Below, piece by piece: positions 19,729 through 41,814 of a stretch of 64,000 nucleotides of DNA. Made by a program: the position numbers and the translations under genes. Under the pieces are notes generated by a model. The model worked only from the letters and a program-made list of their open reading frames with translations, ran no database searches and was not told the DNA's origin. The stretch is from Candidatus Brennerbacteria bacterium. Its GTDB lineage: Bacteria; Patescibacteriota; Minisyncoccia; UBA6257; GWB1-50-10. The DNA is taken from assembly GCA_016183535.1 (NCBI GenBank), contig JACPEK010000003.1:327-64326 (forward strand), written 5' to 3'. Position 1 is the stretch's first letter. Every line of letters begins with the position of its first letter.

Positions 19729-19795
19729 TGTTTCAATTATATCAAATTGGCTTCCTTGCTTGCTTTTTGGTACTCCGCTTATCCACCCTTTTTCA

Positions 19796-19824
19796 TTGAC
19801 TTTTTCATAGTTTTCATGTATAAT
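19796..19824 (+). promoter_or_regulatory. Consensus sigma70 promoter TTGACT-17-TATAAT for the BNR/T9SS cargo gene
   Basis: -35 at 19796-19801, exact 17-nt spacer, -10 TATAAT at 19819-19824; AAAGGAGAT RBS at 19852-19860. Confidence 0.7.
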
Positions 19825-19865
19825 TGAGGGCAGAAATAATTAATAATCATTAAAGGAGATTAGCC

Positions 19866-21164
19866 ATGAAACGGATATGGATGTATCTAGCAATGGCGTT
19901 GGTCATTGCGACTGCGTCCATTCCGAATGCGGGATGGGCGCAGGCGGTGTCGGCGGACATCACCATCAGTCGAAACCTTCTGCCGGACAGTTTAAGAAAT
20001 TATATTTATTCTCTCTGGGTAGACGGGAACGGTGATATTTTCACGACGATGCCATGGAAGGCGTTGCTCCGTTCGACGGATGACGGGGTGACGTGGAAGC
20101 AGATCTTCAAGAGAGATTTTCTCTCTAATTTCGGGTTTGCGGTCATGCGCGATCAGAAAACCAATGCACTCCTCTTTGGAAACGGGGGGGGGTTGTACCG
20201 GTCAAGCGACGATGGCGCAAGCTGGACCTTTGTATGGGAAAAGGGAGCGGGATGTTTCCTTGTGAAGCCAGACGGCTCTATTCTCGCCGGCACCGGTAAA
20301 CATATCGGCCATTCCGAAGATGGAGGCGTGTCGTGGAAAACGGTACTCTACCGCGACGACCACTATTTCAACGTGGAAGCGCTCGCGATGAGTCCAAAGA
20401 CGGGTTCTCTCTTTGCGGGCACCGCGGACACTATCGGTTTGGGCGTGCTCCGCTCAACTGATGATGGCACAACGTGGCACCAGTCGAACAGCGGTCTTGG
20501 GGATCTTCATGTGTGGGCGCTCGCCACGGACAATAACGGAACCATTTACGCGGGGGTCGAGAGAAAAGGTCTTTACCGTTCCACTGACGATGGAGTCACG
20601 TGGGAGAAAGTACCAGGATTCAACGCTTCACCGAGAAACGCCATCGCAATTCTCGTGCTGAAGCCCGATCTTATCTGCGTCGGTTTTGGCTGGAAGGGTG
20701 GCGGCGATCCCGTGGGAAAGGGTGGCGGCTTCAAATATGACGGCAAGGCGTGGACGCAATTTATTGCGGACTCCATAGATGTAACCTCGTTCGCAGTGAA
20801 GGGCAAATCGCTCCTTGTCGGCTCGTTAGACGCTATCTACCGCGTGGACGGGGCGATCGATACGCCGGTGTCCGTGGAAGAGGAACCTGATGTAATCCCC
20901 TCCTCGTTCGTTCTGCATCAGAACTTCCCCAATCCCTTCAATCCGAGTACCACGATAACCTTCTCGCTTCCCGATCGAAGCCATGTACGCCTCGCGGTGT
21001 GGAACGTGATCGGCGAGGAAGTCGCAACGTTGGTCGAGGAAGAACGGTCGGCTGGGATCCATCGGATTGTTTGGAACGCCAAGGGTCTCCCGAGCGGTAT
21101 TTATCTATACCGGATGCAAACAGAAACATCAGTACAGGCAAAGCGGATGATGCTGCTGAAATGA
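19866..21164 (+). CDS. Secreted BNR/Asp-box repeat beta-propeller protein with T9SS-type C-terminal sorting domain
   Basis: Signal peptide; about six S-x-D-x-G-x-T-W Asp-box repeats (STDDGVTW, SSDDGASW, HSEDGGVSW...); C-terminal 80 aa NFPNPFNPSTTITFSLPDRSHVRLAVWN...GLPSGIYLYRM...KRMMLLK matches Por_Secre_tail. Confidence 0.85.
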   Translation: MKRIWMYLAMALVIATASIPNAGWAQAVSADITISRNLLPDSLRNYIYSLWVDGNGDIFTTMPWKALLRSTDDGVTWKQIFKRDFLSNFGFAVMRDQKTNALLFGNGGGLYRSSDDGASWTFVWEKGAGCFLVKPDGSILAGTGKHIGHSEDGGVSWKTVLYRDDHYFNVEALAMSPKTGSLFAGTADTIGLGVLRSTDDGTTWHQSNSGLGDLHVWALATDNNGTIYAGVERKGLYRSTDDGVTWEKVPGFNASPRNAIAILVLKPDLICVGFGWKGGGDPVGKGGGFKYDGKAWTQFIADSIDVTSFAVKGKSLLVGSLDAIYRVDGAIDTPVSVEEEPDVIPSSFVLHQNFPNPFNPSTTITFSLPDRSHVRLAVWNVIGEEVATLVEEERSAGIHRIVWNAKGLPSGIYLYRMQTETSVQAKRMMLLK

Positions 21165-21182
21165 TATTCAAAGGGCTTGATA

Positions 21183-21218
21183 CATAAGTATCAAGCCCTT
21201 TTGCTTTTCTAATTCGTT
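21183..21218 (+). terminator. Rho-independent terminator, copy 1 of a repeated hairpin (gggcttgatac...gtatcaagccc plus T-run)
   Basis: 11-bp perfect stem; near-identical copies at 28738 and 31540, each right after a CTD-encoding 3' end. Confidence 0.8.
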
Positions 21219-21312
21219 GGTTTCAAAGTAATAAGCCATATTATTAAATTTTACATTTCCCAAACTTCATGATAAAACATTCTTAGAATCTAAATAATTT
21301 AAGGAGAAAACA

Positions 21313-21819
21313 ATGAAACCATTACTGATTCTTATCTATGGTCCTAACGGCGCCGGTAAAACTACCCTAGCTAGAGCTCTTGCCACAAAATATCGCGGGC
21401 TTCAAATCCAGATCGATACATTCTCAAGTATGGCCCGAGGTAGGTTTTGGCATACACGCCAGAATAATAAAGACAAAATGGTGCTTGTGCTGGGAGTTTT
21501 GGATGCCGCAATGAAAAGTACGAGTCACCGGCGGTTTTTCCTTGAGGGGGTATTAATTTATCCATTTATGTTCAAACTACTCGAGGCCTGGTGTAAGAAA
21601 AATTTCGTGAAGTTTGTTCCAATTTATCTGACCGGAAATCTTGTTGATCTCGATTTCAGAATCAGACACCGGAAAATCTTGAAGAAAAATTGGAATGAGC
21701 ACCTCCCAGAATTTTTCGAGAACTTTCATTATAAGAAAGCTCGAAAAATATCTAGCTCAGGCAAGACATCTCAAGTTGTATTGAAAGAAATTCAAGCAGT
21801 AATTGGAGAAAGGGGGTAG
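21313..21819 (+). CDS. Small P-loop NTPase/kinase-like protein
   Basis: 168 aa; Walker A GPNGAGKTT near the N-terminus; low-GC; first gene of the island operon. Confidence 0.55.
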   Translation: MKPLLILIYGPNGAGKTTLARALATKYRGLQIQIDTFSSMARGRFWHTRQNNKDKMVLVLGVLDAAMKSTSHRRFFLEGVLIYPFMFKLLEAWCKKNFVKFVPIYLTGNLVDLDFRIRHRKILKKNWNEHLPEFFENFHYKKARKISSSGKTSQVVLKEIQAVIGERG

Positions 21820-21822
21820 GCC

Positions 21823-22257
21823 GTGGAATATTCTATGAGCATTCTTAAGCCAGATTGCATCGAGAGAAACATGGAGGGCACCGTGCGAAGAATGTTAACC
21901 GAACACGGCTTCCTCGTTCTCTTAGAAAAGAGGACTAGACTTTCGTTGGACGATGTATCGTTTATCTATGAGAGATGTGTCGGCGAAGATTTTTTTAAGG
22001 ATTTTGCGGCATTTCTCACGTCTGGCGACGTAGTCGTGTTGGTTCTTTCAAATCCTACGTCCAAAAACGTGATAAAAGATTTGAATAGCCTTGTTGGTCA
22101 TACTAATCCTCAGCTTGCAAAAGACTATACCATCAGAAAGCTTGGAGAAAGCGTTCGCCGGAACCTCGTCCACTCATCAGCAGATCCCCCATCTTTTTGG
22201 AGAGAAGCTTCACGGATGTTTTCTGAGAAGGAGATGTGCGATGCGGGTCTTGAATAA
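21823..22257 (+). CDS. Nucleoside diphosphate kinase-like protein (divergent)
   Basis: ILKPD near the N-terminus and NLVHSSAD (NDK His-active-site region NxxHxSD) near the C-terminus; possible alternative start ATG at 21835. Confidence 0.6.
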   Translation: MEYSMSILKPDCIERNMEGTVRRMLTEHGFLVLLEKRTRLSLDDVSFIYERCVGEDFFKDFAAFLTSGDVVVLVLSNPTSKNVIKDLNSLVGHTNPQLAKDYTIRKLGESVRRNLVHSSADPPSFWREASRMFSEKEMCDAGLE

Positions 22258-22291
22258 AAATTCTTGACCCGCTTTTGTTATAATTTTCCAT

Positions 22292-22570
22292 ATGGATCTA
22301 GAAAGATTTGAAAAAGATTTTCAGAAAAAGTTGAAAAGTTATCCGAAAGTGTGGGGTAAAGAGGAACGTATCCTTCACCTCGTGGAGGAGATTGGAGAAT
22401 TTGCTGAAATCACTCTCCAATATAACGGAAGGAAGGAGCCAAAAAGGAACCTTACTGATGTTAAAATTGCCCTTGCCGACGTTCTTGAAGATGTCCTCGC
22501 CCTTTCAGTCCTCTATGATTTAAAGTTTGAAAAGCTTCTAGAGGAGATTATTAATGAAAAAAATAACTAG
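22292..22570 (+). CDS. MazG-like all-alpha nucleoside triphosphate pyrophosphohydrolase (small)
   Basis: 92 aa; EEIGEFAE metal-binding EExxE motif typical of MazG-like NTP-PPases. Confidence 0.6.
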   Translation: MDLERFEKDFQKKLKSYPKVWGKEERILHLVEEIGEFAEITLQYNGRKEPKRNLTDVKIALADVLEDVLALSVLYDLKFEKLLEEIINEKNN

Positions 22571-23342
22571 AGCCACTTACGCTCTAACACTTACTGAAGC
22601 ATTGCGCCTTCTAAGGAAGGAAACGAGCGTTTTGAGAAATTTAGAGTTCATCGCGTTACTTGGTAGCGTAAAGATCAAAGAACACGTTCCGGGATATAGC
22701 GATTTGGATTTGCTTCTTATACTCAAATCTGACGCTAGTGGAGCTTTAGACGAAAAACTTCTTTTAGAGTTGCAAAAAATATGCGCAGATTTGTCGAAAA
22801 CTTATCGAATAAATATCTCGTTTTTGACTCATACAGAAAAAGAATTGGTCGAGTATGTCGACTACGAATATTTGAAACATTATTCATCGGGTAAATTGCT
22901 TTATGGGAAACCAGAATTATTTTCGAAACTTTTTAAAAGGATAATTTCTAGAAAGAAATCCTATGGTAAGAAGCTAGTGAGAGAAATGTTCAAAAGCATT
23001 GTCCATGCCCGCTTTAATCTTATAAGAAAGTTTGTATCTCTAAACAAATTCAATACTAGAAACTATCGGGATGGTTTACTGAAATTATTTATCGATAATT
23101 TGTTTGAAATAGCTGACTGGAGACTCATCGCCGATGAAATCTGGTGCGTTTCTAAAAAAGAAATTGTGAGTAGAATATTTTCGATCTCAAAAAGTCCACA
23201 CAGGGAAATATTGGAAAGCGCGTATAAATATCGCAGAGACTGGAATCATTTGGTTGTTTCCAGTAAACAAGCCAGATCTTTTTTTATTAGTGGGATTAAA
23301 TTTATCAATGACTGCGTTCGTGATCTAGAGAGACGAACATGA
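22554..23342 (+). CDS. Nucleotidyltransferase (Pol-beta superfamily minimal NTase) domain protein
   Basis: GS-x11-DLD motif (LLGSVKIKEHVPGYSDLDLLLIL) followed by a helical C-terminal domain; overlaps MazG by 17 nt and GT4 by 4 nt. Confidence 0.6.
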   Translation: MKKITRATYALTLTEALRLLRKETSVLRNLEFIALLGSVKIKEHVPGYSDLDLLLILKSDASGALDEKLLLELQKICADLSKTYRINISFLTHTEKELVEYVDYEYLKHYSSGKLLYGKPELFSKLFKRIISRKKSYGKKLVREMFKSIVHARFNLIRKFVSLNKFNTRNYRDGLLKLFIDNLFEIADWRLIADEIWCVSKKEIVSRIFSISKSPHREILESAYKYRRDWNHLVVSSKQARSFFISGIKFINDCVRDLERRT

Positions 23343-24442
23343 GAATTGTCTTTGTTTCAAGGTCGCTCCCATATCTTGGAGGGAGGGAGGTTATAGTGGA
23401 GCGATTAATGGAAAAATTAAAATATAGACATCATATTTTATTACTGACGCCGGATGCCGGACTGAAAAGAAGAGGCATTAAAGTCGTTAACATAAATAAA
23501 AACCTAAAAAGAATAGTTGGGGGGTTTAGGCCTGATATTATAAGTTGCCACACGTTTTATTTTTTTAACCTCGCATATAAGCTATCCCGCGCTCTAGATG
23601 TTCCCCTTATTACAACGTTCCATGGAATGTTTTTGAGACTTTATGGCAAAGATTATCGCTCAATAATCAGAAATATTTGTGAAAAAAGCTTCGTCGTTAC
23701 TGTGGTCTCTAGAAACTATAAGGAGGAGCTCATTCGCGCCCTACGAGTCAGCAGGGCAAAAATTTCTGTAATTAAGAATGGTATACCAAAAGGCGAGGTT
23801 TCTCGGATCAATAAAAATATTTTCAAGTTAAAAAATTATATTCCTTTGGACAAAACTCTCGTCGTTGTCCCAGCTCGAACCGATAAGATTAAAGGACTTG
23901 AGTATCTTATTGGAGTTGCAAAAAAAATAAAGAATGGGGGCTTTTTCTTTTTAGTGTGTTCTCCAATCGGACGCCATAACAATTGGGAGAAGTTATTTAT
24001 GAAAAAACTAGTAGAACTCGCCCCTCCTAAAGATGTAATTGACTTCAGAGAATATGCTCATTCAGATTTACAGAAGCTCTTTCACGTCTGCGATATCTGC
24101 CTTCTCCCCTCGCTGATGGAAGGCGTGTCGATTTCAATTCTTGAAGCAATGGAGAAAGGTTGCATTGTAATCACAACCAATGTTGGAGGAAGCCCAGAAG
24201 TCATAAAGAATGGAGTGAACGGATACTTAATTGAACCGAGAAATGTTAAGGAAATTGTGCATGCACTTGAAAGGTGTACTAAACTCACAAAGTTTACTAG
24301 AGAGAAAATAAAAAACAACGCGAGGAAAACTGTACAAACTAGATTTTCCGAGGAAAAGATGTTAAAATCCTACGAAGATTTATTCCTTAAAGTAATCAAG
24401 AGGCATGAAAATAAGCAACGACGCACAAGCGGTAGTTTATAA
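23339..24442 (+). CDS. Glycosyltransferase family 4 (GT-B, group 1)
   Basis: C-terminal EGVSISILEAMEKGCIVITTNVGGSPEVIKNGVNGYL matches the GT1/GT4 EX7E region. Confidence 0.75.
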   Translation: MRIVFVSRSLPYLGGREVIVERLMEKLKYRHHILLLTPDAGLKRRGIKVVNINKNLKRIVGGFRPDIISCHTFYFFNLAYKLSRALDVPLITTFHGMFLRLYGKDYRSIIRNICEKSFVVTVVSRNYKEELIRALRVSRAKISVIKNGIPKGEVSRINKNIFKLKNYIPLDKTLVVVPARTDKIKGLEYLIGVAKKIKNGGFFFLVCSPIGRHNNWEKLFMKKLVELAPPKDVIDFREYAHSDLQKLFHVCDICLLPSLMEGVSISILEAMEKGCIVITTNVGGSPEVIKNGVNGYLIEPRNVKEIVHALERCTKLTKFTREKIKNNARKTVQTRFSEEKMLKSYEDLFLKVIKRHENKQRRTSGSL

Positions 24443-24839
24443 GCAAGGAGATCAGGGGTTGTTGTTTCTTGTGTTGAAGCGTTTTGATCCGGATAAGAAT
24501 GAGACTCATTATCGACTGATAAAGGGAAGGATTAAAGAAAAAGAAGGTGAAACTTCCGAAGTAGCGGTTTTGAGAGAAATAAAGGAAGAAGCTGGACTTA
24601 CTAAGTTGAGAATCGTTTCAAAAATTCCTAGTTATTCTTATGAAGCGGGCGATGTCAGACATGAAGTAAGCGTCTTTCTAGTAGAAAACACTGCGGAAGA
24701 GTTGGTAAGTGTTGACTCCAGCGAAGAAGGTGCGTTTACCATAGAAGGCGCAACGTGGTTTAGGGTGGAGGATATAGCAACGAAGTTAAACTTCGAGGTA
24801 GAGCGAGCGGCGATTCGGGAGGGATTAAAGCTCGTTTAG
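24405..24839 (+). CDS. Nudix hydrolase
   Basis: Nudix box GRIKEKEGETSEVAVLREIKEEAGL (G-x5-E-x7-REVxEExGU); start overlaps GT4 by 38 nt. Confidence 0.7.
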   Translation: MKISNDAQAVVYKQGDQGLLFLVLKRFDPDKNETHYRLIKGRIKEKEGETSEVAVLREIKEEAGLTKLRIVSKIPSYSYEAGDVRHEVSVFLVENTAEELVSVDSSEEGAFTIEGATWFRVEDIATKLNFEVERAAIREGLKLV

Positions 24840-25859
24840 AATATTTTTAATGGCGTTTTCGCTCGACTGCGAGCGGAATAATTTCACATTCTTTAAGAAA
24901 TTTGGGTGAGAGTTTTCCTCGAATCTTCCCTCGAAATCTATAACAAAAACCCTCTTTAGTAAGCTACTTGCTATCTGTATCAAGCTTCCTTCCGCGCCAA
25001 CTGCGGTGTGACAACTTGCAAGCTCAATTAGTGTTTCTCGATAGCTTAGCCTATTCACAAAGTTTATAACCTTAGGGGAAACCCTGATGGCTCCATTCCC
25101 TTTTCCTAAGAGTGCAACGGCGTTCCTTCTTTTGTTGATTTTATGAACCAAACTCTCTGTTTTCTCAAAACTTTTTGAGGTATCTTCGACACCGGCGATT
25201 ACCCCGATCCTCTTGTGCTTCCTTTTTGAATATATCAACTCCTTTTCATTGGTGGAAAAAAATATTTTTGGCTCGTATTCGTAAAACTTAGTTCCAAGGT
25301 AATGTTCGGAAAGTTTTTGCCACGCTAAAGTATTTCCAAATTTACCAAAGATATCTCGCCACGCTTTAAGATCCCTATCAAACACGATCACTGCCGCTCT
25401 TAAAGAAAAAAGCATCAGCAACGTTTCTCTTAATGTATCTCTTCCAAGGCCAACAAGAATACAGTTCCCCCTTATAAATTGGAATCTACTTCGAAACGAC
25501 CAAATGTGAATCGAATCAATGTTGGGATTATTCTCTAGTATTTGCGCATGTCCTCGAGTAGTTAAAATAGAAACCCGATACCCATCCCTTTTCCAATTTT
25601 CAAAAAGACCTGTCTGGAAAAAAATATCCCCATATCCCTGCTTCAACGGTTCCACAAATAATATGTTCTTTATGCCTCGTAAATTACTCTTTTTGGGGAT
25701 AAACCATATGAACGCGGTGAGTATAATATCCCTTAATACAAAGAACAGCATGAAGATCAAAGCATAGAAAAACCCTTTCTTTTTCCTGATCTTATGGTAC
25801 TTTCTCCTGATCCTTTCCAGATACGTTATGTGCATATGTTCGGTAATATTATCCGACAT
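24825..25859 (-). CDS. Glycosyltransferase family 9-like (heptosyltransferase-like)
   Basis: 344 aa; N-terminal ILFVEPLKQGYGDIFFQTGLFENWKR...NNPNIDSI resembles GT9 ADP-heptose:LPS heptosyltransferases; low-GC. Confidence 0.55.
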   Translation of the reverse strand: MSDNITEHMHITYLERIRRKYHKIRKKKGFFYALIFMLFFVLRDIILTAFIWFIPKKSNLRGIKNILFVEPLKQGYGDIFFQTGLFENWKRDGYRVSILTTRGHAQILENNPNIDSIHIWSFRSRFQFIRGNCILVGLGRDTLRETLLMLFSLRAAVIVFDRDLKAWRDIFGKFGNTLAWQKLSEHYLGTKFYEYEPKIFFSTNEKELIYSKRKHKRIGVIAGVEDTSKSFEKTESLVHKINKRRNAVALLGKGNGAIRVSPKVINFVNRLSYRETLIELASCHTAVGAEGSLIQIASSLLKRVFVIDFEGRFEENSHPNFLKNVKLFRSQSSENAIKNILNEL

Positions 25860-25861
25860 GC

Positions 25862-26134
25862 ATGCTACTTACTCAACATGAATATTCGCAGAACTACCCG
25901 AACCCGTTCAATCCAACGACGACCATCGCCTTCTCGCTTCCCGACCGAAGCCATGTACGCCTCGCGGTGTACAATGCGCTCGGCGAGGAAGTCGCGGCCT
26001 TGGTGGACGAGGAAATCGCGGCCGGCACCCACAAGACCACGTGGGACGCCTCCGGACTCCCGAGCGGCATCTACTTTGTGCGAATGAATGCTCACACATT
26101 CACCGCCACGAAGAAGATGGTGTTACTGAAGTAG
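25862..26134 (+). pseudogene. Orphan T9SS C-terminal sorting domain fragment (5'-truncated cargo gene)
   Basis: 90-aa ORF is essentially only NYPNPFNPTTTIAFSLPDRSHVRLAVYN...GLPSGIYFVRM...KKMVLLK; high-GC, abutting a low-GC gene with a junction near 25885. Confidence 0.7.
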
Positions 26135-26144
26135 ATTTATTTAA

Positions 26145-26178
26145 AGAGCCGATTGCACATGCAATTGGCTCTTTTTTG
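26145..26178 (+). terminator. Rho-independent terminator after the orphan CTD fragment
   Basis: agagccgattgca / tgcaattggctct hairpin followed by TTTTTTG. Confidence 0.65.
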
Positions 26179-26196
26179 CGGGGCACTAATTTTTTA

Positions 26197-26916
26197 TTAT
26201 TCCTCTAAAAACCACCTTGCCGGCAATGGCCCACCGGATTTTTTATAGATATGCTTTACCAAACCAGAAAGAATCATTTTTTTAATCTCAATACTGCTCG
26301 CTTTATAAAAATGTTCAACTTGGTTAGAAAATTTTCTATCCGTTCTTTTTAAAATCTTCCGCATCTCGTTCGGTTGTCTTAAAAACTCTCCGCTTAACTT
26401 AAGGAACAATTCCACAATGTTGGTGATCAATAAATGGCTGTCGATGCCAAATGCCAAATAATCTTTGCCTTTAATGTCACGTTGAACCTCCCCCCAAAAA
26501 TCATCAATGGAGTATTTGTGCATTAAAACCTCTCCATTTTTATATTTAGCTTTTAACTTCAGATTGTCTCTAGCAACTATTTGGATTCTCTCTAAGCTCC
26601 GCCGTCTTTGAAAGAGAATCCTGCCGTGCGCCAGCATATGTGAGGTTATTCTTCTCAGGCCATTTCTATCCTCCTTAAGATATTTTTTAGCTTCCGCCCA
26701 TGTATTAAAAATAATGTCCACACGAACCCCGTTTTTGATAAAATTACTTCTGGAAAATTTACCACTTTGGCTCAAGAGGATATATATGTCAACGTCCGAA
26801 TATGTATCAAATTTATTTCTTGCCACAGATCCGAATAGTAAAATACCCAAGACATTTTTGTCCGGTTTATATTGATCTACTACTTCGCTGCAAATTTTTT
26901 GGATGAACTTCTCCAT
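26197..26916 (-). CDS. Nucleotidyltransferase domain protein (Pol-beta superfamily, paralogous class to 22554..23342)
   Basis: LFGSVARNKFDTYSDVDIYILL GS-x9-DVD NTase motif; 239 aa; low-GC. Confidence 0.65.
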   Translation of the reverse strand: MEKFIQKICSEVVDQYKPDKNVLGILLFGSVARNKFDTYSDVDIYILLSQSGKFSRSNFIKNGVRVDIIFNTWAEAKKYLKEDRNGLRRITSHMLAHGRILFQRRRSLERIQIVARDNLKLKAKYKNGEVLMHKYSIDDFWGEVQRDIKGKDYLAFGIDSHLLITNIVELFLKLSGEFLRQPNEMRKILKRTDRKFSNQVEHFYKASSIEIKKMILSGLVKHIYKKSGGPLPARWFLEE

Positions 26917-26978
26917 AAATAAAAATAGGGCTAAGGTAAGTATAAAACTTTTCCTTAGCCCCGCGAAGTCGTCACCCT

Positions 26979-27080
26979 CTAGTGGCAGTTGCTGGGGCTT
27001 TGACAGGTGCAGAACACCTTTAGCTTCGGCAGTGCCTTGACTTTGAGGATCGGCTGCTGTTTGAGCTTCGTCTTCTGCAT
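26979..27080 (-). CDS. Putative RiPP precursor peptide (33 aa, Lys-rich leader, C-terminal C-x-C-x6-C)
   Basis: GGAAAGGAGG RBS, then ATG 5 nt after the rSAM stop codon; MQKTKLKQQPILKVKALPKLKVFCTCQSPSNCH; same strand and immediately downstream of the rSAM/SPASM enzyme. Confidence 0.55.
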   Translation of the reverse strand: MQKTKLKQQPILKVKALPKLKVFCTCQSPSNCH

Positions 27081-27085
27081 AGCAT

Positions 27086-28525
27086 TCACCTCCTTTCCGT
27101 TGCAGGTTGGAGAAGTTCCGGCCCTGACGCCGTCGCTTCCCGCAGTTGTTCTCGAAGAATCTCGTGGGTCATACGGCGGTAGAAGTCGCACATTCGTTCG
27201 ATCTTGACGGTTTTCGTCGCCCGAGCGAACTCTTGCGTAATGTTGCAACCACCACCGCACTGCCCTTCGATCATGCACCCTTTACACATTTCCATTACTC
27301 CGGTGAGATGATCTCTCACAAAGCGATGATAGGCGGTGCCTGACGCATGAAACGACTGGATTTCCGAGAGACTCCCGAGTTGGGTCGTGCTGTAGCCACA
27401 TCCGTAGATGTTTCCGGACGGGCCTACGCACATGCTGTTGCCGCGGACTGCGCCGCAGAACGCGACACGGCTTTCGAGCGTTGATCCGTTAAGATTCTCG
27501 GCTGGCCGTGACCAGAAGCCGGGAACATCAACGCCTCGTGCCGCCGCGTAGCGCCGAATCCGCATCAGCTTTGCGACGACATCTTCAATCGGAATTTCCA
27601 CCATATCGACAACGTCGATATCAATCCTGACGTTCTTCATGCCGCGGGTTACTGCCCAGTCGACAATCGACTCGTCAAGTTCGTGAAAATTCTTTTCGGT
27701 GACTGTCACCGCGATGCCATCGAGTGGATACCCCGCTTGCGCCAACGCATCGAATCCACGCATTATTTGGGAGAATGTACCGCCCCCAGACTTCGTCAAG
27801 CGGACGTGATCATTTCCCTCGCGCAAGCCGTCGAGACTAGAAGCAATCTCGACGCGATGTTCTTTGAGAATCGCGGCGATATCTGGCGTAATGAGTGACG
27901 CGTTCGTGTTGATCGAGAAGTGAAACTCGAATTCCGAACCATAGGCGATACGGCAGTATTCAAACATCTGCTTGATGACTGGCCACGCCAACAGCGGTTC
28001 GCCTCCACCAAAGTTGATCTCGGCGACACGCTTTCCATGACCGCGAAGAATCTCGAGATACCGATCCACCGTTTCCTTGGCTGTGTCATACCGCATAAAC
28101 TTTTTGGGGTTGTTGATGCGGTCAGAAGTTTCCAAGTTGTTAAAGTGGATGCAATAGGTGCAACGGAAGTTGCACGCCTCACTCATGATGAGCTCGAGAT
28201 AATCAATCAGCGAACCGCTGATAATTTCCTTTTCCCCTTCTCGCATCCGCTCTTCGAGAAATGCTCGGTCATCGAAACCCTCTGGAACAAGGAAATGACA
28301 CTGCAAAAATTCCTCAATTGCTTCCCGATTTTCGTCGGTCAACTCATTGCCGACCTGTGAACGAACCGTTATCGGCTCGGAGAACGACTCAAGAAATTCG
28401 AGCGTCTCAACGGGAACAACTCTTGGGTATCCAAACAGTGAGTGCCAAATCACCGCAGAGTCGCCATCTAGAACGGCCTGCACGAACGGCGACTTCGTGT
28501 AAGCGACATTAAGGTTAAGTGCCAT
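27086..28525 (-). CDS. Radical SAM / SPASM-domain peptide-modifying enzyme
   Basis: CNFRCTYC (CxxxCxxC) radical-SAM cluster motif near residue 125; Cys-rich SPASM region CGAVRGNSMCVGPSGNIYGCGYS...CKGCMIEGQCGGGCN; about 100-aa N-terminal extension that could be an RRE-like domain. Confidence 0.8.
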   Translation of the reverse strand: MALNLNVAYTKSPFVQAVLDGDSAVIWHSLFGYPRVVPVETLEFLESFSEPITVRSQVGNELTDENREAIEEFLQCHFLVPEGFDDRAFLEERMREGEKEIISGSLIDYLELIMSEACNFRCTYCIHFNNLETSDRINNPKKFMRYDTAKETVDRYLEILRGHGKRVAEINFGGGEPLLAWPVIKQMFEYCRIAYGSEFEFHFSINTNASLITPDIAAILKEHRVEIASSLDGLREGNDHVRLTKSGGGTFSQIMRGFDALAQAGYPLDGIAVTVTEKNFHELDESIVDWAVTRGMKNVRIDIDVVDMVEIPIEDVVAKLMRIRRYAAARGVDVPGFWSRPAENLNGSTLESRVAFCGAVRGNSMCVGPSGNIYGCGYSTTQLGSLSEIQSFHASGTAYHRFVRDHLTGVMEMCKGCMIEGQCGGGCNITQEFARATKTVKIERMCDFYRRMTHEILREQLREATASGPELLQPATERR

Positions 28526-28648
28526 TGCAGGCTCCTTTCTTTGTTTTTTAAACGATTCAACAGATTTCTTTGTTATCTACAGAATGACAATTATTATAAT
28601 ACTTGTCAAATCGCATAATGTTTCTCCATTATCAAGATATCTTTACGG

Positions 28649-28727
28649 CATCTACTTCTATCGCTTGGAGACCGATTCGCCAGCTGGCGGATTCACGGCC
28701 GTAAAGAAGATGATCCTACTAAAGTAG
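28649..28727 (+). pseudogene. Remnant of a T9SS CTD 3' end (..GIYFYRLETDSPAGGFTAVKKMILLK*)
   Basis: In-frame match to the last about 25 aa of CTD copies, with an extra SPAGG coded by the palindrome CGCCAGCTGGCG; followed by terminator copy 2. Confidence 0.6.
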
Positions 28728-28737
28728 CTTTATTAAA

Positions 28738-28776
28738 GGGCTTGATACAAATGTATCAAGCCCTTTTGCGTTTTGT
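28738..28776 (+). terminator. Rho-independent terminator, repeat copy 2
   Basis: gggcttgatacaaatgtatcaagccc plus TTTTGCGTTTTG; near-identical to copies 1 and 3. Confidence 0.8.
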
Positions 28777-28801
28777 TTGGATGTAGTACTATGAAATCGA
28801 A

Positions 28802-28993
28802 ATGGCCACCGCAACTTTTCTCCAAAAGCTGAATACGGAATTGAAACGCATCGTTGCGCACGCGGTGCTTGATACCCTTACTGACCCCGATCTCGGCGCA
28901 GAACTCACCCTGCATGCCAAGCGACGTCTGCGCGCGGCCGCTCGCGGACGAAGCGTTGCCACGCTCGCGGAGATAAAAAAGAAACATTACTGA
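28802..28993 (+). CDS. Putative type II antitoxin (addiction-module component, TIGR02574-like) paired with the RelE/ParE toxin
   Basis: 63 aa; stop overlaps the toxin start (ATGA); position and size typical of an antitoxin. Confidence 0.5.
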   Translation: MATATFLQKLNTELKRIVAHAVLDTLTDPDLGAELTLHAKRRLRAAARGRSVATLAEIKKKHY

Positions 28994-29265
28994 TGGGCAG
29001 ATGGTCGCTCGGGTTCACGCGGAGTGCTGAGGAGGACCTCGCGCAATTGGATCGGCCGGTCCGTCGCCGCATTATCGACAAACTCGAATGGCTATCGGCA
29101 CACTTCGATGGAATTATCCCCTCGGCGCTACATGCGGAGTTCCGCGAGTTCTACAAACTTCGGGTGGGCGACTGGCGTGTCGTTTATAAAATCGAGTGGC
29201 GCAAATACTCCATCATGATTTGCTACATTGACCGCCGCGACCGGGTATACAAAAAAGGAAGGTAG
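28993..29265 (+). CDS. RelE/ParE family type II toxin
   Basis: 90 aa; YKLRVGDWRVVYKIE...IMICYIDRRDRVY matches the RelE/ParE core. Confidence 0.7.
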   Translation: MGRWSLGFTRSAEEDLAQLDRPVRRRIIDKLEWLSAHFDGIIPSALHAEFREFYKLRVGDWRVVYKIEWRKYSIMICYIDRRDRVYKKGR

Positions 29266-29267
29266 TT

Positions 29268-29597
29268 ATAGACACCGCTCTCAAACGGCTTGCCACCGTT
29301 CGTGTCGAGGAGGGTGACTTCTCGCCGCTTCCTACCCACTACTCACTGGGACAAAACTACCCGAACCCATTCAATCCCACGACCACGATCACCTTCTCAC
29401 TTCCCGACCGAAGCCACGTACGCCTCACGGTGTACAATGCGATTGGTCAGGAAGTCGTGAAGTTGGTTGACGAGGAGGTCTCCGCAGGCACCCACAAAAC
29501 AACGTGGGACGCCTCCGGCCTCCCGAGCGGCATCTATTTCTATCGTTTGGAAACGAAGCAATTCATCCAAACGAGGAAGACTATGTTCATGAAGTAG
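29268..29597 (+). pseudogene. 5'-truncated T9SS cargo gene fragment (linker plus complete CTD)
   Basis: Reading frame open from 29268 with no start codon; ..HYSLGQNYPNPFNPTTTITFSLPDRSHVRLTVYNAIGQEVVKLVDEEVSAGTHKTTWDASGLPSGIYFYRLETKQFIQTRKTMFMK*; followed by a hairpin terminator at 29611-29645. Confidence 0.65.
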
Positions 29598-29746
29598 ATT
29601 TATTGATTCGAAAGCCCTGTACAATACGCATGGGGCTTTTTGTGGCGCTGTTCGATAACTGTTGAAAAGCTTTGATTATGCGAGCACGGGCAAATCAGGG
29701 AATCAAGTAAAATGGAGGGTTATCGAACGGCCCCTTTTTGATTGAT

Positions 29747-29775
29747 TTGACAAACTGGCACCCGCACACTTTAAT
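29747..29775 (+). promoter_or_regulatory. Sigma70-like promoter TTGACA-17-TTTAAT upstream of the DUF397 gene
   Basis: -35 at 29747-29752, 17-nt spacer, -10 at 29770-29775; AAGGAGGTG RBS at about 29817. Confidence 0.45.
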
Positions 29776-29834
29776 GTAACTAGGTTATTTCCGAGAGGAA
29801 AATTTAAAATCTAGATAAGGAGGTGAGAAAGACG

Positions 29835-30065
29835 ATGGTTCAAGCTGATGACAAAAAAAAGCTCCGGCAAATCAAATTCAGGGATAGCGATTTTCACAAA
29901 GCTAGCGGTACCCTGATGAGGAGAATCTGCGTTATGGTCGCACATAAAAAAGGCGCCATAGCAGTGCGCGATTCAAAAGATGCATTGAAGAAAACGCTCA
30001 TTTTCAACGAAGCAGAATGGAGCGTTTTCATCAAGGGCGTCAAGGCCGGCGAGTTTGATATATAA
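29835..30065 (+). CDS. DUF397 domain protein
   Basis: CVMVAHKKGAIAVRDSKDALKKTLIFNEAEWSVFIKGVKAGEFD closely matches the DUF397 consensus (..VRDSKDP.GP.L.F...EW.AF...VKAGEFD); alternative GTG start at 29823. Confidence 0.7.
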   Translation: MVQADDKKKLRQIKFRDSDFHKASGTLMRRICVMVAHKKGAIAVRDSKDALKKTLIFNEAEWSVFIKGVKAGEFDI

Positions 30066-30147
30066 AGCGAACTCGTGAAAAGTAAGTCGAGAAGAGGGTA
30101 ATATAGTCTTGTTACCCTCTTTTTTATGTTAAAATTATTAAATATTC

Positions 30148-30903
30148 ATGGAAAAAAATCTAAAAATAAAACTTTCAAAAGAGTTTTCACTATACGGGAA
30201 ATTTAGTGGTTCTTTTAATCAGCCATTATTTATTATTGCACACGGGTTTTCGGGGAATATGGATGAAGAATTTTATCGTTTAGCTACTTATTGGTTTGGA
30301 AAGCATGGGTTTTCAACATTCCGGTTTAATTTTTATGGTCATCAAAAAGATGCTCGGCAGCTTATGAATTGTACTCTTAAAACACATAGCACTGACTTTG
30401 ACACAATTGTTCGTTATTTTAGAAAGCGTGGGGTGAGGAAAGTATTTGTTGTAGGACACAGTTTTGGTGGATTGGTAATTTTTTGTTCTCGCAATCAAGA
30501 TTTTGACGGTGCGGTGCTCTGGGATCCATCTTACAAAATTTCATTTACAAAGACGATGTTTGGTTTTCCGGGCGGGAAATATATAAAAGAGATAAATGGT
30601 TATCTTATGAAATGGGGGGTAAATTTGATTATTGGAAAAGTAATGGCAAAAGAAATTGATTCACTTCAATGGGATTCAATAGCAAAAAATTTTAAAGTGC
30701 CTTTTAAAATAATTCTTGCTGGAAAAGGTGCGCTTAAAGGCACAAAAAAATATCTAAATAATGCAAAGGTGGAGAAAGATTTGATGATTGTAGAAGGAGC
30801 AACACATTATTTTAATGATCGAGATGGGATGCAAGAGAAAGTTTTTAAATCTTCTGAAGAATGGTTTAGAAAATTTATAAAAATTCGTCGTCATTATAAT
30901 TAG
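30148..30903 (+). CDS. Alpha/beta-fold hydrolase (serine esterase-like)
   Basis: 251 aa; nucleophile elbow VVGHSFGG; low-GC. Confidence 0.65.
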   Translation: MEKNLKIKLSKEFSLYGKFSGSFNQPLFIIAHGFSGNMDEEFYRLATYWFGKHGFSTFRFNFYGHQKDARQLMNCTLKTHSTDFDTIVRYFRKRGVRKVFVVGHSFGGLVIFCSRNQDFDGAVLWDPSYKISFTKTMFGFPGGKYIKEINGYLMKWGVNLIIGKVMAKEIDSLQWDSIAKNFKVPFKIILAGKGALKGTKKYLNNAKVEKDLMIVEGATHYFNDRDGMQEKVFKSSEEWFRKFIKIRRHYN

Positions 30904-31065
30904 GTAATTAGGGAGTTTTGTAACCATATGGTAGTAAAATACCCATATGGCACAAGACGAAAGAATGTTTTCGGTTGCGCGGCCAACTTTTTGAGGGGGA
31001 GAAAGTGTATTTTCTGTGGGTCGTTCAAGGTATGCAAGACGAAGCGCGACTATGCGCGGCGCCGC

Positions 31066-31529
31066 CACAAGACCTGTGGAAAACTATATTCTACCGCGAC
31101 GACCACTACTTTAATGACGAGAAGGAATGGACGCAAATCGTCGCCGATACCGCCTACACAGTGAAGGGAGAGTCTCTTCTCGTTGGTACTTCAAGCGCCC
31201 TCTACCGCGTGGATGGGGCGATCGATACGCCGGTGTCGGTCGAGGAGGATCCTGGCATAATCCCCTTCTCGTTTGGGTTGTCGCAAAACTACCCGAACCC
31301 GTTCAATCCGAGTACCACGATCACCTTCTCACTTCCCGACCGAAGCCACGTACGCCTCACGGTGTACAATGCGATTGGTCAGGAAGTCGTGAAGTTGGTT
31401 GACGAGGAGGTCTCCGCAGGCACCCACAAAACAACGTGGGACGCCACTGGATTCCCGAGCGGCGTCTACTTCGCCCGCCTCGAAACCAAAAGTTTCGTCG
31501 CCACGAGGAAGATGATCCTACTAAAGTAG
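31066..31529 (+). pseudogene. Internally deleted paralog fragment of the BNR/T9SS cargo gene (C-terminal propeller piece, linker, CTD)
   Basis: ..LWKTIFYRDDHYFNDEKEWTQIVADTAYTVKGESLLVGTSSALYRVDGAIDTPVSVEEDPGIIPFSF..CTD aligns to residues about 165-175 and about 290-432 of the 19866..21164 product; no plausible N-terminus or signal peptide. Confidence 0.65.
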
Positions 31530-31539
31530 CTTTATCAAA

Positions 31540-31574
31540 GGGCTTGATACATTCGTATCAAGCCCTTTTGCGTT
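31540..31574 (+). terminator. Rho-independent terminator, repeat copy 3
   Basis: gggcttgatacattcgtatcaagccc plus TTTTGCGTT. Confidence 0.8.
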
Positions 31575-31593
31575 AGAATCGCCTCGTTTGATT

Positions 31594-31833
31594 TCATCTA
31601 TAAGTTTTCTCCGATCGCCTCTCCACCGCGAGAACAAATATTTTTTTATCGTCCAAAAGTCGGAAAATAACCCGAAGGTCTCCCGACCTCACGCGAAACA
31701 AGTCCTGCCGGCCCTTGAGCTTCTTTATGTCCAACCAAATAATTTTCCCCTCTTTCAGAGAGTTTAAAATCGTTGCTATTTTCTTTCTTTCTTTTTCCGA
31801 AAGCTTTTCAAGCTGTTTGGAAACGCGATCCAT
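31594..31833 (-). CDS. RelE/ParE family type II toxin
   Basis: 79 aa; LFRVRSGDLRVIFRLLDDKKIFVLAVERRSEKTYR RelE-fold core; 4 nt downstream of the antitoxin. Confidence 0.7.
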   Translation of the reverse strand: MDRVSKQLEKLSEKERKKIATILNSLKEGKIIWLDIKKLKGRQDLFRVRSGDLRVIFRLLDDKKIFVLAVERRSEKTYR

Positions 31834-31836
31834 ACC

Positions 31837-32049
31837 CTAAAGGCGGGAAAGTAAATCGTTTATATTCACTCCCCCTTTGCTTATTTTGGTGAAATCAATA
31901 ACCTCCTCCCAATGGTCGTCTTCGACTTGAGAAACGCGGAAGATCGGCTTGGAGCGACGCATCACCACAATGGGGATGCCTCTCCGCGCCGCCCGCGCGT
32001 ATTTTTCCAGATTCATCCTGAATTCCTTTAGACCAATGACGCTTTCCAT
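31837..32049 (-). CDS. Phd/YefM family type II antitoxin
   Basis: 70 aa; IGLKEFRMNLEKYARAARRGIPIVVMRRSKPIF matches the Phd/YefM N-terminal fold. Confidence 0.7.
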   Translation of the reverse strand: MESVIGLKEFRMNLEKYARAARRGIPIVVMRRSKPIFRVSQVEDDHWEEVIDFTKISKGGVNINDLLSRL

Positions 32050-32085
32050 GCTTTAAAAGATAATCTAAAGATAATCTAAAGTCAA

Positions 32086-32268
32086 GCAATATTCGAATCC
32101 TCGGACATAATAGATACGTCGAGGTCGGCTGTCTGCGTCTCCCCCGCCTTCGCAGTCTGGAGCTCATATTTATAGACACCACTCTCGAACGGCCGGCCGC
32201 CGTTCGTGTCGAAAAAAAATTTGTCACCGGCAGTGCGGTCAAGATTTGGATTTAAAACACCCCCCTAT
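32086..32268. repeat. About 180-bp relic copy (about 90% identical) of an internal segment of the large FN3 surface-protein gene (matches 19349-19533)
   Basis: Direct sequence comparison: aatcctcggacataatagatacgtcgag...cagtgcggtcaagatttggattta shared by both loci; the copy has no intact ORF context. Confidence 0.75.
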
Positions 32269-32283
32269 CCGAACCCACACAAA

Positions 32284-33303: not shown

Positions 33304-33316
33304 ATCCTCTATTATA

Positions 33317-33874: not shown

Positions 33875-33902
33875 CCGCTTCTCTAGTATACCTCAAACGC
33901 CG

Positions 33903-35159: not shown

Positions 35160-35166
35160 AAACTTA

Positions 35167-37776: not shown

Positions 37777-37879
37777 ACCAGAAGTGTCCCTGAACCACGT
37801 TGTTGTTTTGAACGACATCAAGCCCAAGGTTTGATTCCTTAGGGTACACCGGCGAGGATACGCGCCCGCGGGCGGGGTG

Positions 37880-39850: not shown

Positions 39851-39938
39851 GGGAACTATACTATCCTATACTATCAAAAATGTCAAATTTATGTCATACA
39901 TAAAGAAAGAGCTGATACTTTGGTATCAGCTCTTCGAA

Positions 39939-41690: not shown

Positions 41691-41760
41691 TTTTCCTCCT
41701 TTTTGTTTTGTGAATGTTATAACTAGGCATGACCATGCCACATTTTGGCGAATCTTGTCA

Positions 41761-41792
41761 ACAAAAAGCTCCGCGCGAGGAAAGGCGCGGAG
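41761..41792 (-). terminator. Rho-independent terminator (ctccgcgc-gaggaaag-gcgcggag) downstream of the 276-aa hypothetical gene
   Basis: 8-bp GC stem; T-run CTTTTTGT on the minus strand. Confidence 0.7.
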
Positions 41793-41814
41793 CGAAAAAG
41801 AAAATGAAAAAGTT

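Follow-up and report, generated by a model that had tools for sequence, protein, structure and literature searches.

The island at 19.35-32.26 kb of the window (the whole 64,000-nucleotide stretch of DNA that was analyzed) is probably, at a little better than an even chance in our judgment, the eroded leftover of an old tandem array built from a divergently transcribed, chromosomal surface-protein gene pair, and by the same joint reading it is a recombinase-free hotspot in which gene turnover is driven by homologous recombination. Repeats, mosaic exchange among the repeats, foreign inserts and variability between relatives are established here. The host belongs to the CPR: the BNR protein of the island matches, at 100%, an NCBI protein from a Candidatus Brennerbacteria MAG, and the GAPDH and DUF192 genes of the window lie in a synteny shared with other CPR genomes. 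The window also encodes type IV pilus genes, DUF5671 and LTD genes.

The repeat unit

The unit contains, in order, the 5' ~135 codons of a large FN3 gene on the minus strand (FN3'), a promoter region shared by both genes, a BNR propeller gene with a T9SS type-A sorting domain (CTD) on the plus strand, and an A/T-flanked hairpin. One unit is intact (16993-21207), and at least three more are present only in pieces. The first-pass annotation took the CTD and its terminator for the entire unit, which was too narrow, and it overlooked the copies of the FN3 5' part at 19352-19521, 29261-29327 and 32089-32258. The first and last of these are 89%-identical direct repeats that bracket the whole island.

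16993..19728, minus strand: full-length 911-aa FN3/InlB-B-repeat surface protein, left gene of the intact unit (Pfam fn3 and Flg_new_2)
19866..21164, plus strand: intact 432-aa BNR/sortilin-type beta-propeller with signal peptide and T9SS type-A CTD (Pfam and NCBIfam matches)
29261..29327, minus strand: FN3 5' remnant (about aa 79-100 of the 911-aa protein), repeat
32089..32258, minus strand: FN3 gene 5' fragment (aa ~62-122, stop at the end), right array edge, direct repeat of 19352-19521

The ortholog of the 911-aa gene is a 992-aa Jorgensenbacteria gene with ~50% amino acid identity and a syntenic type IV pilus flank.

Sorting-domain modules

Five CTD modules lie at 20.9-31.5 kb, in agreement with the first-pass count, and a sixth is found at 39.9 kb. 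The full CTDs of the array end at 21164, 26134, 29597 and 31529. The modules other than that of the intact BNR gene are as follows.

25886..26174, plus strand: orphan CTD without cargo (ORF 25862-26134), followed by a separate hairpin at 26143-26174
28646..28772, plus strand: CTD tail (last ~25 codons; ~28646-28727) and hairpin H2
29328..29640, plus strand: headless CTD (from ~29328) and a weaker hairpin
30975..31574, plus strand: BNR paralog pseudogene, internally deleted (ORF 30975-31529), and hairpin H3
39905..41891, minus strand: sixth CTD module, an FN3-CTD protein (gene 39939-41891) in the backbone between uvrA and uvrB, with a related hairpin

The BNR pseudogene has lost ~156 codons at its start and ~125 internally, and its CTD is complete. 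The last 7 codons and hairpin of the CTD tail have 94% identity to 31508-31574. Two intact cargo genes had been placed between 21.2 and 32.3 kb. One adjoins the array (19866-21164); the second is the gene at 39939-41891, beyond that range, and its likely start gives the signal peptide MKRLLPLLLLAVLA.

All four full CTDs of the array pass the PF18962 and TIGR04183 cut-offs (five of five with the 40-kb copy), their sole PDB profile match is a Flavobacterium T9SS substrate CTD, and they sit at the extreme C-terminus of signal-peptide proteins. In scoring above the cut-offs and in their placement they resemble the type-A CTDs of the Bacteroidota/FCB group, although the host here is a CPR/Patescibacteria member. 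The presence of T9SS-type sorting domains in a CPR lineage that lacks an outer membrane is an unexpected side result of this analysis; to our knowledge, these bacteria have neither an outer membrane nor a T9SS.

Hairpins behind the sorting domains

There are exactly three copies of the sequence GGGCTTGATAC-N4-GTATCAAGCCC, starting at 21173, 28738 and 31540, where shuffled sequences lead one to expect none. The number of copies had been given correctly; the first had been placed at 21183, and its true start is 21173. Each of the three folds at -22 to -23 kcal/mol and has a U-tract.

21170..21201, unstranded: hairpin H1, 14-bp stem, 4-nt loop, A-tract 5' and T-tract 3' (-22 kcal/mol, z = -7)
28735-28766: hairpin H2
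31537-31568: hairpin H3

H1 is predicted to be a bidirectional intrinsic terminator. The orphan CTD and the headless CTD are each followed by a separate hairpin with a different stem, and a stable A/T-flanked stem-loop of common layout is found at 16 of 16 CTD ends in three genomes. Since every one of these ends carries a hairpin while the stem sequences vary, the hairpin is a terminator.

A dedicated cassette system, in which the CTD 3' end and hairpin act as an attC-like site and a site-specific recombinase captures and shuffles cassettes, is quite improbable. It would account for inserts bounded by three near-identical hairpins, for a hairpin region better conserved than the neighboring coding sequence, and for breakpoints that, in two genomes, recur ~7 codons ahead of the stop. 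However, a Pfam scan of a subset of the window ORFs (~40) found no integrase or transposase, no att-like site was found, and the sole Phage_integrase seen belongs to contig L091, which is donor-like and unrelated, and lies 5 kb away from the gene cluster there. The exact hairpin was absent from genome, metagenome and viral collections. The hairpins are also perfect palindromes that follow CTD genes only, with freely variable stems, and the inserts comprise multiple genes, in either orientation, and have their own promoters. The idea of a specific recombination site, and with it that of an integron-like system, was thus not upheld. Integron cassette arrays likewise hold foreign genes in series parted by hairpin-forming repeats, but here IntI and attI are missing (ORFs scanned) and the hairpins are perfect, variable terminators; none of the three integron-defining features tested was found at the array.

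Inserts between the modules

The low-GC segments between the modules have a GC content of 0.30-0.44 versus ~0.56 in the backbone. This bears out most of the claim that the intervening DNA is low in GC; the exceptions are the rSAM gene (0.52-0.60) and the first TA pair (0.56-0.60).

21208..25885, unstranded: insert A, with P-loop kinase, NDK, MazG-like (92 aa), NTase (262 aa), GT4, NUDIX and, on the minus strand, GT9-like (344 aa) genes (GC 0.30-0.45; Pfam)
26197..26916, minus strand: insert B part 1, low-GC Pol-beta-type nucleotidyltransferase (GC, Pfam)
26979..28525, minus strand: rSAM/SPASM peptide maturase (27086-28525) and a 33-aa Cys-containing ORF (27080-26979), a RiPP-type pair with backbone-like GC
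28802..29265, plus strand: TA pair 1, a 63-aa antitoxin-like ORF and a 90-aa ParE-family toxin, between H2 and the FN3' fragment
29823..30903, plus strand: insert D, with genes for DUF397 (80 aa) and for an alpha/beta hydrolase (251 aa) of very low GC
31596..32090, minus strand: TA pair 2, a discrete module of 495 bp with ParE/RelE-like (79 aa) and Phd/YefM-like (70 aa) genes and a tandem operator repeat

The gene order of insert A also occurs in the groundwater CPR contig L091 at 48-60% amino acid identity, again at low GC. This largest insert is a portable, conserved nucleotide/glycosyl-transferase operon of six genes. Judged by their low GC and by the presence of the largest in another CPR genome, the inserts are foreign, as the first-pass annotation had supposed. 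TA pair 2 has 82% nucleotide identity to positions 8299-8793 of contig L090, where it also lies directly 3' of a BNR-CTD terminator, behind a BNR-CTD gene of only 46% amino acid identity. The slots that lie behind a terminator, ahead of the following unit, hold horizontally acquired DNA.

Integrity of the assembly

Mis-joining of contigs from different organisms at common CTD k-mers could produce a mosaic of high and low GC. The source is a metagenome MAG, and the repeats reach 132 identical nucleotides. However, per-run Logan contigs, made with a different assembler (k=31), tile 19357-31343 and 32094-37611 at 99.98-100% identity, reproduce every GC transition there and break at repeats only. 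Contig L001 spans both insert A junctions, L086/L087 span 26048-27416, L088/L089 span 27392-29411, and L003 spans 29382-31343; across the junction 31343-32094 no independent contig was found among the Logan contigs. The runs are probably from the same study as the MAG, and therefore test the assembler rather than the population. Direct repeats within one molecule leave the path A-R-B-R-C unambiguous, and two independent assemblies from other samples have a similar architecture, so that a chimera is highly improbable.

Recombination between the copies

The proposed exchange among CTD copies was confirmed by mosaic tracts in the window and in one relative. Positions 29382-29513 and 31314-31445 share an identical 132-nt tract that takes in 55 variable sites (p=0.0002), with ~65% identity on the flanks. 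In its 3' third, the headless CTD has 94-96% identity to the CTD of the 40-kb FN3 gene, whose cargo is unrelated (p=0.02), and the sixth module takes part in the exchange. Across their hairpin regions, the BNR and BNR-deleted copies are homogenized (p=0.0004), and the Jorgensenbacteria CTDs are likewise mosaic (p=0.0002 to 0.008). Since the gene-conversion tracts are significant, recombination at the modules is real.

Neisseria pilE/pilS and Borrelia vlsE are silent-cassette gene conversion systems, and the array is like them in having truncated paralogs near expressed surface-protein genes and mosaic conversion tracts. It is improbable that the truncated FN3' and CTD/BNR copies are such (semi-)silent donors, varying the expressed FN3 and BNR genes, even though the array architecture is kept across genera and the truncated FN3' ORFs of Jorgensenbacteria are equal in length and under purifying selection (dS 0.43, dN 0.06). 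The partial copies in the window are few, short and degenerate, and conversion is seen among them and has reached an unrelated cargo gene, with no sign of a directional flow toward an expression site. The FN3' copies retain their own start codons and promoters, and are therefore not silent.

Variability between relatives

The three comparators are all metagenome assemblies and quite diverged (BNR at 46-65% amino acid identity). The syntenic Jorgensenbacteria site has three intact units, each a 138-aa FN3' ORF and a BNR-CTD gene, with other low-GC genes between them (GC 0.38-0.45 versus 0.61), and in L090 equivalent modules hold yet another gene content. The predicted variability between related genomes was thus found. 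Every duplicated unit in Jorgensenbacteria begins with a 7-codon CTD tail and hairpin, tail-plus-hairpin remnants are stacked there, and a 9-kb low-GC segment is enclosed by a 171-nt repeat of CTD tail and hairpin with 94.7% identity.

The role of the CTD and terminator as a recombination anchor was partly upheld, in that the CTDs recombine and tail-plus-hairpin remnants and direct repeats flank inserts. A decaying paralog array that gathered illegitimate insertions at harmless sites (behind terminators, between convergent gene ends), with the repeats uninvolved and CTD conversion incidental, is unlikely but a serious alternative. The fragments are clearly pseudogenes, with stops, lost heads and a degenerate terminal motif (KTMFMK), the scanned ORFs include no recombinase, several insert boundaries are not repeat-to-repeat, and passive build-up at a neutral convergent-terminator site would look similar. 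Against this, headless CTD remnants in two genomes begin at most ~40 nt from the domain boundary, and tail remnants concentrate within the final 4-33 codons instead of being scattered at random over the gene. Inserts are flanked by direct repeats of tail plus hairpin, and an equivalent type of slot carries different low-GC DNA in two genera. The tail plus hairpin is 84% identical between the genera, whereas the BNR genes are at ~69% nucleotide identity.

A possible route of gene turnover

If the locus is a hotspot driven by homologous recombination, ordinary RecA-type recombination among the scattered CTDs, hairpin regions and FN3' fragments would give gene conversion, duplication and deletion. 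The repeats may also serve as homology arms for insertion itself: DNA flanked by two such repeats, from a donor genome or alternatively an excised circle, would slot in after uptake. Entry of the DNA may be by natural transformation, and its capture may be mediated by recombination at the CTD. Selfish modules such as the TA pairs could settle in the transcriptionally neutral gap 3' of a bidirectional terminator. No step would need a dedicated recombinase.

Several observations weigh against this reading. No capture event by homologous recombination was directly observed, and the hairpin repeats make short homology arms, of 44-67 nt with 91-94% identity. A simple exchange from arm to arm would not explain some of the insert boundaries: insert A runs up to the 5' end of the orphan CTD, and L090 has four genes separating the FN3 gene from the BNR gene.

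Polymorphic toxin loci (Rhs, CdiA-CT/CdiI) have orphan module arrays in which, as here, a full gene is followed by truncated copies with the conserved segment, displaced ends are stacked, and homologous recombination in that segment exchanges the attached part. Here, however, the conserved segment is a C-terminal sorting domain with a terminator rather than an N-proximal junction motif, and unrelated operons rather than toxin-immunity pairs lie between the modules. HGT hotspots without mobile-element genes were reportedly described by Oliveira, Touchon, Cury & Rocha in 2017, with turnover by homologous recombination in conserved flanks. The locus shares with them atypical, variable genes at a fixed position with conserved bounds, the lack of an integrase (ORFs scanned), a DNA-uptake machinery, and slot contents that differ among relatives. 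It differs in that its flanks are internally repeated modules (CTD plus terminator, FN3') rather than single-copy core genes, in its serial slots, and in that the Brennerbacteria array is itself eroding. We read the locus as a natural gene-gain hotspot rather than a dedicated cassette machine.

Organization of the array

Repeated FN3, BNR and CTD pieces define a unit consisting of the 5' part of the FN3 gene (FN3', minus strand), a promoter region, the beta-propeller cargo gene (BNR-CTD, plus strand) with its T9SS type-A C-terminal sorting domain (CTD), and a hairpin. FN3 itself encodes 911 aa (16993..19728, minus strand). One intact unit is followed by partial copies, with other genes between them, in the order below.

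Order of elements in the array
16993-21207: unit 1, intact, with hairpin H1 at 21173
21823-25859: insert A cluster, with genes for NDK, a MazG-like protein (92 aa), an NTase (262 aa), GT4, NUDIX and a GT9-like protein
25862-26134 (+): orphan CTD ORF
Insert B: NTase and rSAM pair
28646-28727 (approximate): CTD tail, with hairpin H2 at 28738
Toxin-antitoxin (TA) pair 1
29261-29597: FN3' fragment and headless CTD
Insert D: DUF397 and hydrolase genes
30975-31529 (+): BNR-deleted paralog, with hairpin H3 at 31540
31596-32090: TA pair 2
32089-32258: FN3' fragment
GAPDH gene

The FN3' repeat at 19352-19521 is 89% identical to 32089-32258, where the reading frame ends in VLNPNLDRTAGDKFFFDTNGGRPFESGVYKYELQTAKAGETQTADLDVSIMSEDSNIA and a stop codon, and a shorter FN3' piece (29261-29327) abuts the headless CTD. 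The 184-aa ORF at 30975-31529 is a BNR paralog that lacks the first approximately 156 codons and approximately 125 internal codons.

The window backbone is typical of CPR bacteria, with a type IV pilus cluster (5-15 kb left of the array), LigA, UvrA/UvrB, DUF5671, an LTD protein and a class II ribonucleotide reductase. A Candidatus Brennerbacteria MAG encodes, on a 65.5-kb contig, a protein identical to BNR-CTD. GAPDH and DUF192 are syntenic with other Patescibacteria in a GAPDH-anchored genome scan, which found no relative near enough to show the island site. The longest UvrA ORF (35167-38127, minus strand) has an N-terminal extension of approximately 100 aa with no obvious homology, and the annotated start probably lies downstream of the start of this ORF. 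Within the gene, a repeat (35477-35547 and 36611-36681) corresponds to the duplicated ABC ATPase halves.

A mosaic of this kind may be produced by chimeric assembly, an explanation that merits very little credence here. Per-run Logan contigs, generated by a different assembly method, are 99.98-100% identical to the window, span every GC transition and end solely at repeats, such as the 35-nt identical FN3' stretch and the 132-nt identical CTD tract, which makes a chimera unlikely. The sole stretch with no independent contig is 31343-32094, and look-ups of the rSAM protein and of both TA pair 2 proteins returned no record.

Window positions spanned by Logan contigs
19357-26068: L001
26048-27416: L086/L087
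27392-29411: L088/L089
29382-31343: L003
32094-37611: L002

Sorting domains and their proteins

The first-pass annotation had listed several sorting-domain modules, and a six-frame motif search bears this out with five complete CTDs, beside which there is one 25-codon tail; the minus-strand copy ending at 39939 is an addition to that list. All five full CTDs score above the curated cut-offs of TIGR04183 (27.8-50.1 bits against 23) and PF18962 (30-49.6 bits against 27).

Genes and copies with a full CTD
19866-21164 (+): BNR-CTD gene
25862-26134 (+): orphan CTD
29328-29597 (+): headless CTD
31278-31529 (+): CTD of the BNR-deleted paralog
39939-41891 (-): FN3-CTD gene

The CTD lies at the extreme C-terminus of the BNR and FN3-CTD proteins, both of which have an N-terminal Sec signal peptide; the BNR N-terminus is MKRIWMYLAMALVIATASIPNAGWAQA, and the likely start of the FN3-CTD protein gives MKRLLPLLLLAVLA. 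The orphan, headless and tail copies have no cargo and no signal peptide. An AlphaFold2 CTD model, built on a five-sequence, window-only alignment, is all-beta with a mean pLDDT of only 54.5, and a PDB profile search with the CTD gave a single match, 8glj_D, a Por sorting domain (E=0.006). The dN/dS of the orphan CTDs is 0.2-0.35, a value confounded by gene conversion and so unable to separate functional from recently dead copies.

No T9SS components, such as SprA, PorV, PorU or GldKLMN, are encoded among the approximately 40 window ORFs scanned, and we know of no outer membrane or T9SS in CPR bacteria. T9SS type-A CTDs recur in two further CPR assemblies (the Jorgensenbacteria locus contigs L084/L085, and a third relative, L090), making three assemblies in total. 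Outside CPR, the proteins nearest to the BNR cargo are Ignavibacteria/Bacteroidota homologs of approximately 700 aa (27-39% identity), and a homolog search with the 650-aa FN3-CTD protein gave one match (53%). In the library searched, no paper connects T9SS sorting domains with CPR/Patescibacteria. The presence of CTDs that are, by sequence, genuine T9SS type-A domains on several CPR proteins with signal peptides is unexpected, and may be more surprising than the array itself. Their role in a lineage not known to have an outer membrane raises the question of cell-surface anchoring versus interaction with an FCB-group host.

Hairpins behind the sorting domains

The three near-identical hairpins of the first-pass annotation are confirmed: the pattern GGGCTTGATAC-N4-GTATCAAGCCC occurs exactly three times in the window (21173, 28738 and 31540), with none expected from 100 shuffles. 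A relaxed form of the core finds a fourth copy behind the CTD gene at 39.9 kb. H1-H3 have a 13-14-bp stem and a 4-nt loop, preceded by an A-tract and followed by a T-tract. The CTD hairpins in general have perfect stems of 11-16 bp with A and T tracts, occur solely after CTD ends, and have predicted folds of -19 to -23 kcal/mol (z -4.5 to -7). A terminator scan lists H1 and H2; H3 is unlisted, though it has the same stem and a similar fold.

The layout is that of an intrinsic terminator, with a GC-containing stem-loop and then a U-tract right after the stop codon. In the three genomes, each of the 16 CTD ends (full, orphan and tail alike) is followed by a stable stem-loop with A/T flanks, and the spacing from the stop codon is similar throughout. 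The stems differ widely among these ends (GGGCTTGATAC, GAGCCGATTGC, GCCCGATAC, GGCCCGAG, GAGCCAACACG and others), and the GGGCT stem subfamily has compensatory changes. Since the structure is conserved and the sequence is not, the hairpin fits an intrinsic terminator, probably bidirectional, that would be part of the 3' end of the CTD gene. Shared ancestry plus gene conversion, rather than a sequence-specific site, best accounts for the near-identity of H1-H3.

Rfam has no family match anywhere in the window, and the exact and relaxed hairpin patterns have no match in the public genome, metagenome and viral contig collections searched. A DNA-uptake sequence was rejected, as there are only three to four copies in 64 kb, always behind CTD genes. 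A MITE/REP-type mobile element was rejected on the same copy number and position and on the variable stems.

Recombination among the modules

An alignment of the six CTD copies was tested for mosaic structure by permutation. The headless CTD (29382-29513) and the BNR-deleted CTD (31314-31445) share 132 nt at 100% identity, covering 55 variable sites (p=0.0002), and this tract is flanked by approximately 65% identity. Across its 3' third, the headless CTD has 94-96% identity to the CTD of an unrelated gene, the FN3 cargo gene at 40 kb (p=0.02). The tail at 28.7 kb and the end of the BNR-deleted copy (last seven codons and hairpin) have 90-96% identity. Between the BNR and BNR-deleted copies, the hairpin regions have been homogenised (p=0.0004), while the CTD bodies are approximately 70% identical. 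The Jorgensenbacteria CTDs are likewise mosaic (p 0.0002 to 0.008). By these alignments the modules do recombine. Between the two genera, the tail and hairpin segment has 84% identity, against approximately 69% nucleotide identity for the BNR genes, which suggests exchange between lineages.

Purely passive decay, which would account for the headless, tail and internally deleted copies, is a rather unlikely reading. Programmed surface variation, with the truncated copies acting as silent cassettes, would involve exchange of this kind, and we regard such a program as quite improbable.

Composition and content of the inserts

The first-pass annotation had placed low-GC segments between the modules. 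GC falls from approximately 0.56 in the backbone to 0.30-0.44 in three segments (21.2-25.88, 26.15-26.95 and 29.65-30.95 kb), but the rSAM gene and TA pair 1 have backbone-like GC. The gene content of the inserts is as that annotation described, by ORF and domain scan, with one to seven genes each on both strands. GC falls again, to 0.40-0.48, over the rightmost part of the window (62-64 kb, in the region 59000-64000), possibly another segment of atypical composition.

The gene order of the insert A cluster is kept in L091 (8490-12569), a groundwater CPR contig, with 48-60% amino acid identity and next to a dnaK operon. The L091 copy has a GC of 0.34, versus 0.44-0.50 in its surroundings. Insert A is a portable six-gene cluster, and the atypical composition combined with occurrence in another CPR lineage is as in HGT hotspots. 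Its product may be a nucleotide-sugar or nucleotide-derived compound that is made or modified. Several homologs of its GT4 carry the Pfam GT4-conflict domain. Insert A has no BLAST match among phages, the BNR protein has one weak, irrelevant match in a viral scan, and PADLOC found no known defence system among the island proteins, only weak P-loop/NTase matches to candidate families.

Window positions 26979-28525 (minus strand) encode a PapB-like rSAM/SPASM peptide maturase, and a 33-aa ORF, MQKTKLKQQPILKVKALPKLKVFCTCQSPSNCH, lies 6 nt downstream. This ORF is a candidate RiPP precursor, judging by its Cys-rich C-terminus.

The TA pairs have the type II arrangement of small adjacent toxin and antitoxin ORFs with family HMM matches. 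ParE_toxin scores are 29.0 and 24.0 bits (cut-off 23), the PhdYeFM match is below its cut-off (18.8 versus 29.8), and the antitoxin of TA pair 1 has no family match. TA pair 2 forms a discrete module of 495 bp (31596-32090). This ParE/RelE-Phd module, also found at L090 8299-8793, has a tandem operator-like repeat, AAAGATAATCTAAAGATAATCTAAAG.

Comparison with relatives

A single contig of a Candidatus Jorgensenbacteria MAG (GCA_043807585.1) carries the closest BNR-CTD homologs, three paralogs with 56-65% amino acid identity. Its left flank is syntenic with the window (type IV pilus genes, a 992-aa FN3 gene, BNR-CTD), and two more intact units follow, each a 138-aa FN3' ORF (minus strand) and a BNR-CTD gene (plus strand). 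Between the units lie rSAM and Peptidase_S66 genes, and Peptidase_M16 with a 62-aa ORF, at GC 0.38-0.45; the backbone has 0.61 and the units have 0.52-0.54. Each duplicated unit starts with a seven-codon CTD tail (KKMTLVK* or VKMLLVK*) and a hairpin of the H1-H3 family. Three CTD ends with hairpins are stacked behind the third BNR gene (L084 11290-11620, or 19900-20220 in the merged Jorgensenbacteria sequence), which looks like serial displacement of gene ends. Other perfect palindromes separate these remnants. CTD tail and hairpin also form a 171-nt repeat (94.7% identical) on either side of a 9-kb low-GC segment, within which lies an orphan CTD ORF.

The truncated FN3' ORFs of Jorgensenbacteria (L085 13822-14238 and 18043-18459, minus strand) are intact and of equal length, with dS 0.43, dN 0.06 and dN/dS 0.14. 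The equal length and the dS and dN values indicate that they are kept by purifying selection, and these copies are probably expressed small secreted proteins, not debris.

L090, from another sample, has four genes between its FN3 and BNR genes. Its TA module lies directly behind the BNR-CTD terminator, as in the window, and has 82% nucleotide identity to 31596-32090, while the BNR protein has only 46% amino acid identity. Its orphan CTD adjoins an rSAM gene.

The left flank is syntenic, the Jorgensenbacteria content differs and L090 differs again, the pattern of conserved flank and variable content seen in HGT hotspots; the right flank (GAPDH) has no synteny in either relative. The inter-module slots hold different genes of foreign composition in each of the three genomes, so the arrangement is not fixed, as the first-pass annotation had anticipated.

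An orphan CTD or CTD tail adjoins an rSAM/SPASM gene in all three genomes. The neighbours are divergent with a gap of approximately 60 bp in two of the three, and the rSAM genes are only 24-30% identical. The adjacency could reflect chance, a common preference in insertion or a functional connection.

Neighbouring CTD and rSAM genes
Window: 28584-28727 and 27086-28525
L090: 13389-13631 and 13693-14325
L084: 16521-16748 and 18419-19615

Model for the array

The array has repeats, mosaic exchange, foreign inserts and variability among relatives. We favour, with somewhat better than even confidence, the reading that a surface-protein gene pair formed an ancient tandem array, since eroded, which is now a hotspot of recombination-driven gene gain and loss. 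The inserts would have entered by homologous recombination with the repeats as arms, and the DNA may have arrived by natural transformation, with the type IV pilus cluster 5-15 kb away. Mobile-element-free HGT hotspots, in which homologous recombination occurs in conserved flanks, are closest to the locus in function, and the orphan-module arrays of polymorphic toxin loci are closest in form.

The first-pass annotation had proposed that the sorting domain and terminator act as a recombination anchor in the manner of a cassette system. The anchor is plausible and the evidence for recombination is real; the cassette system does not stand, all three integron hallmarks being absent from the hairpins, inserts and scanned ORFs. 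An integron has an adjacent IntI tyrosine recombinase and attI, whereas no integrase, transposase or recombinase domain is present among the approximately 40 window ORFs scanned. Its attC sites, which bound every cassette, are imperfect palindromes with conserved core sites, unlike the perfect stems of variable sequence found only at CTD ends, and its cassettes are single promoterless ORFs in one orientation, whereas the inserts hold one to seven genes on both strands. A dedicated hairpin-specific cassette system, for which the near-identity of H1-H3 might speak, seems very improbable.

A doubtful extension of the favoured reading is that the array is a selected, recombinase-free landing pad, with modules common to CPR bacteria serving as universal homology arms for DNA that enters through the adjacent type IV pilus/competence apparatus and is inserted between units. 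Such modules would comprise, again doubtfully, the CTD 3' end and terminator on one side and the FN3' fragment on the other. More speculatively, the CTDs may be kept because an FCB-group host has T9SS attachment machinery that they engage. If true, the landing pad would give genome-reduced CPR bacteria a reusable route of operon gain.

CPR/Patescibacteria have tiny genomes and few classical mobile elements and encode DNA-uptake machinery, and their gene gain is poorly understood. The locus is a concrete, comparable case in which repeated gene ends recombine and foreign low-GC operons lie between them, in at least two genera, and it thus makes recombination-driven gene turnover in CPR bacteria testable with read-level data.
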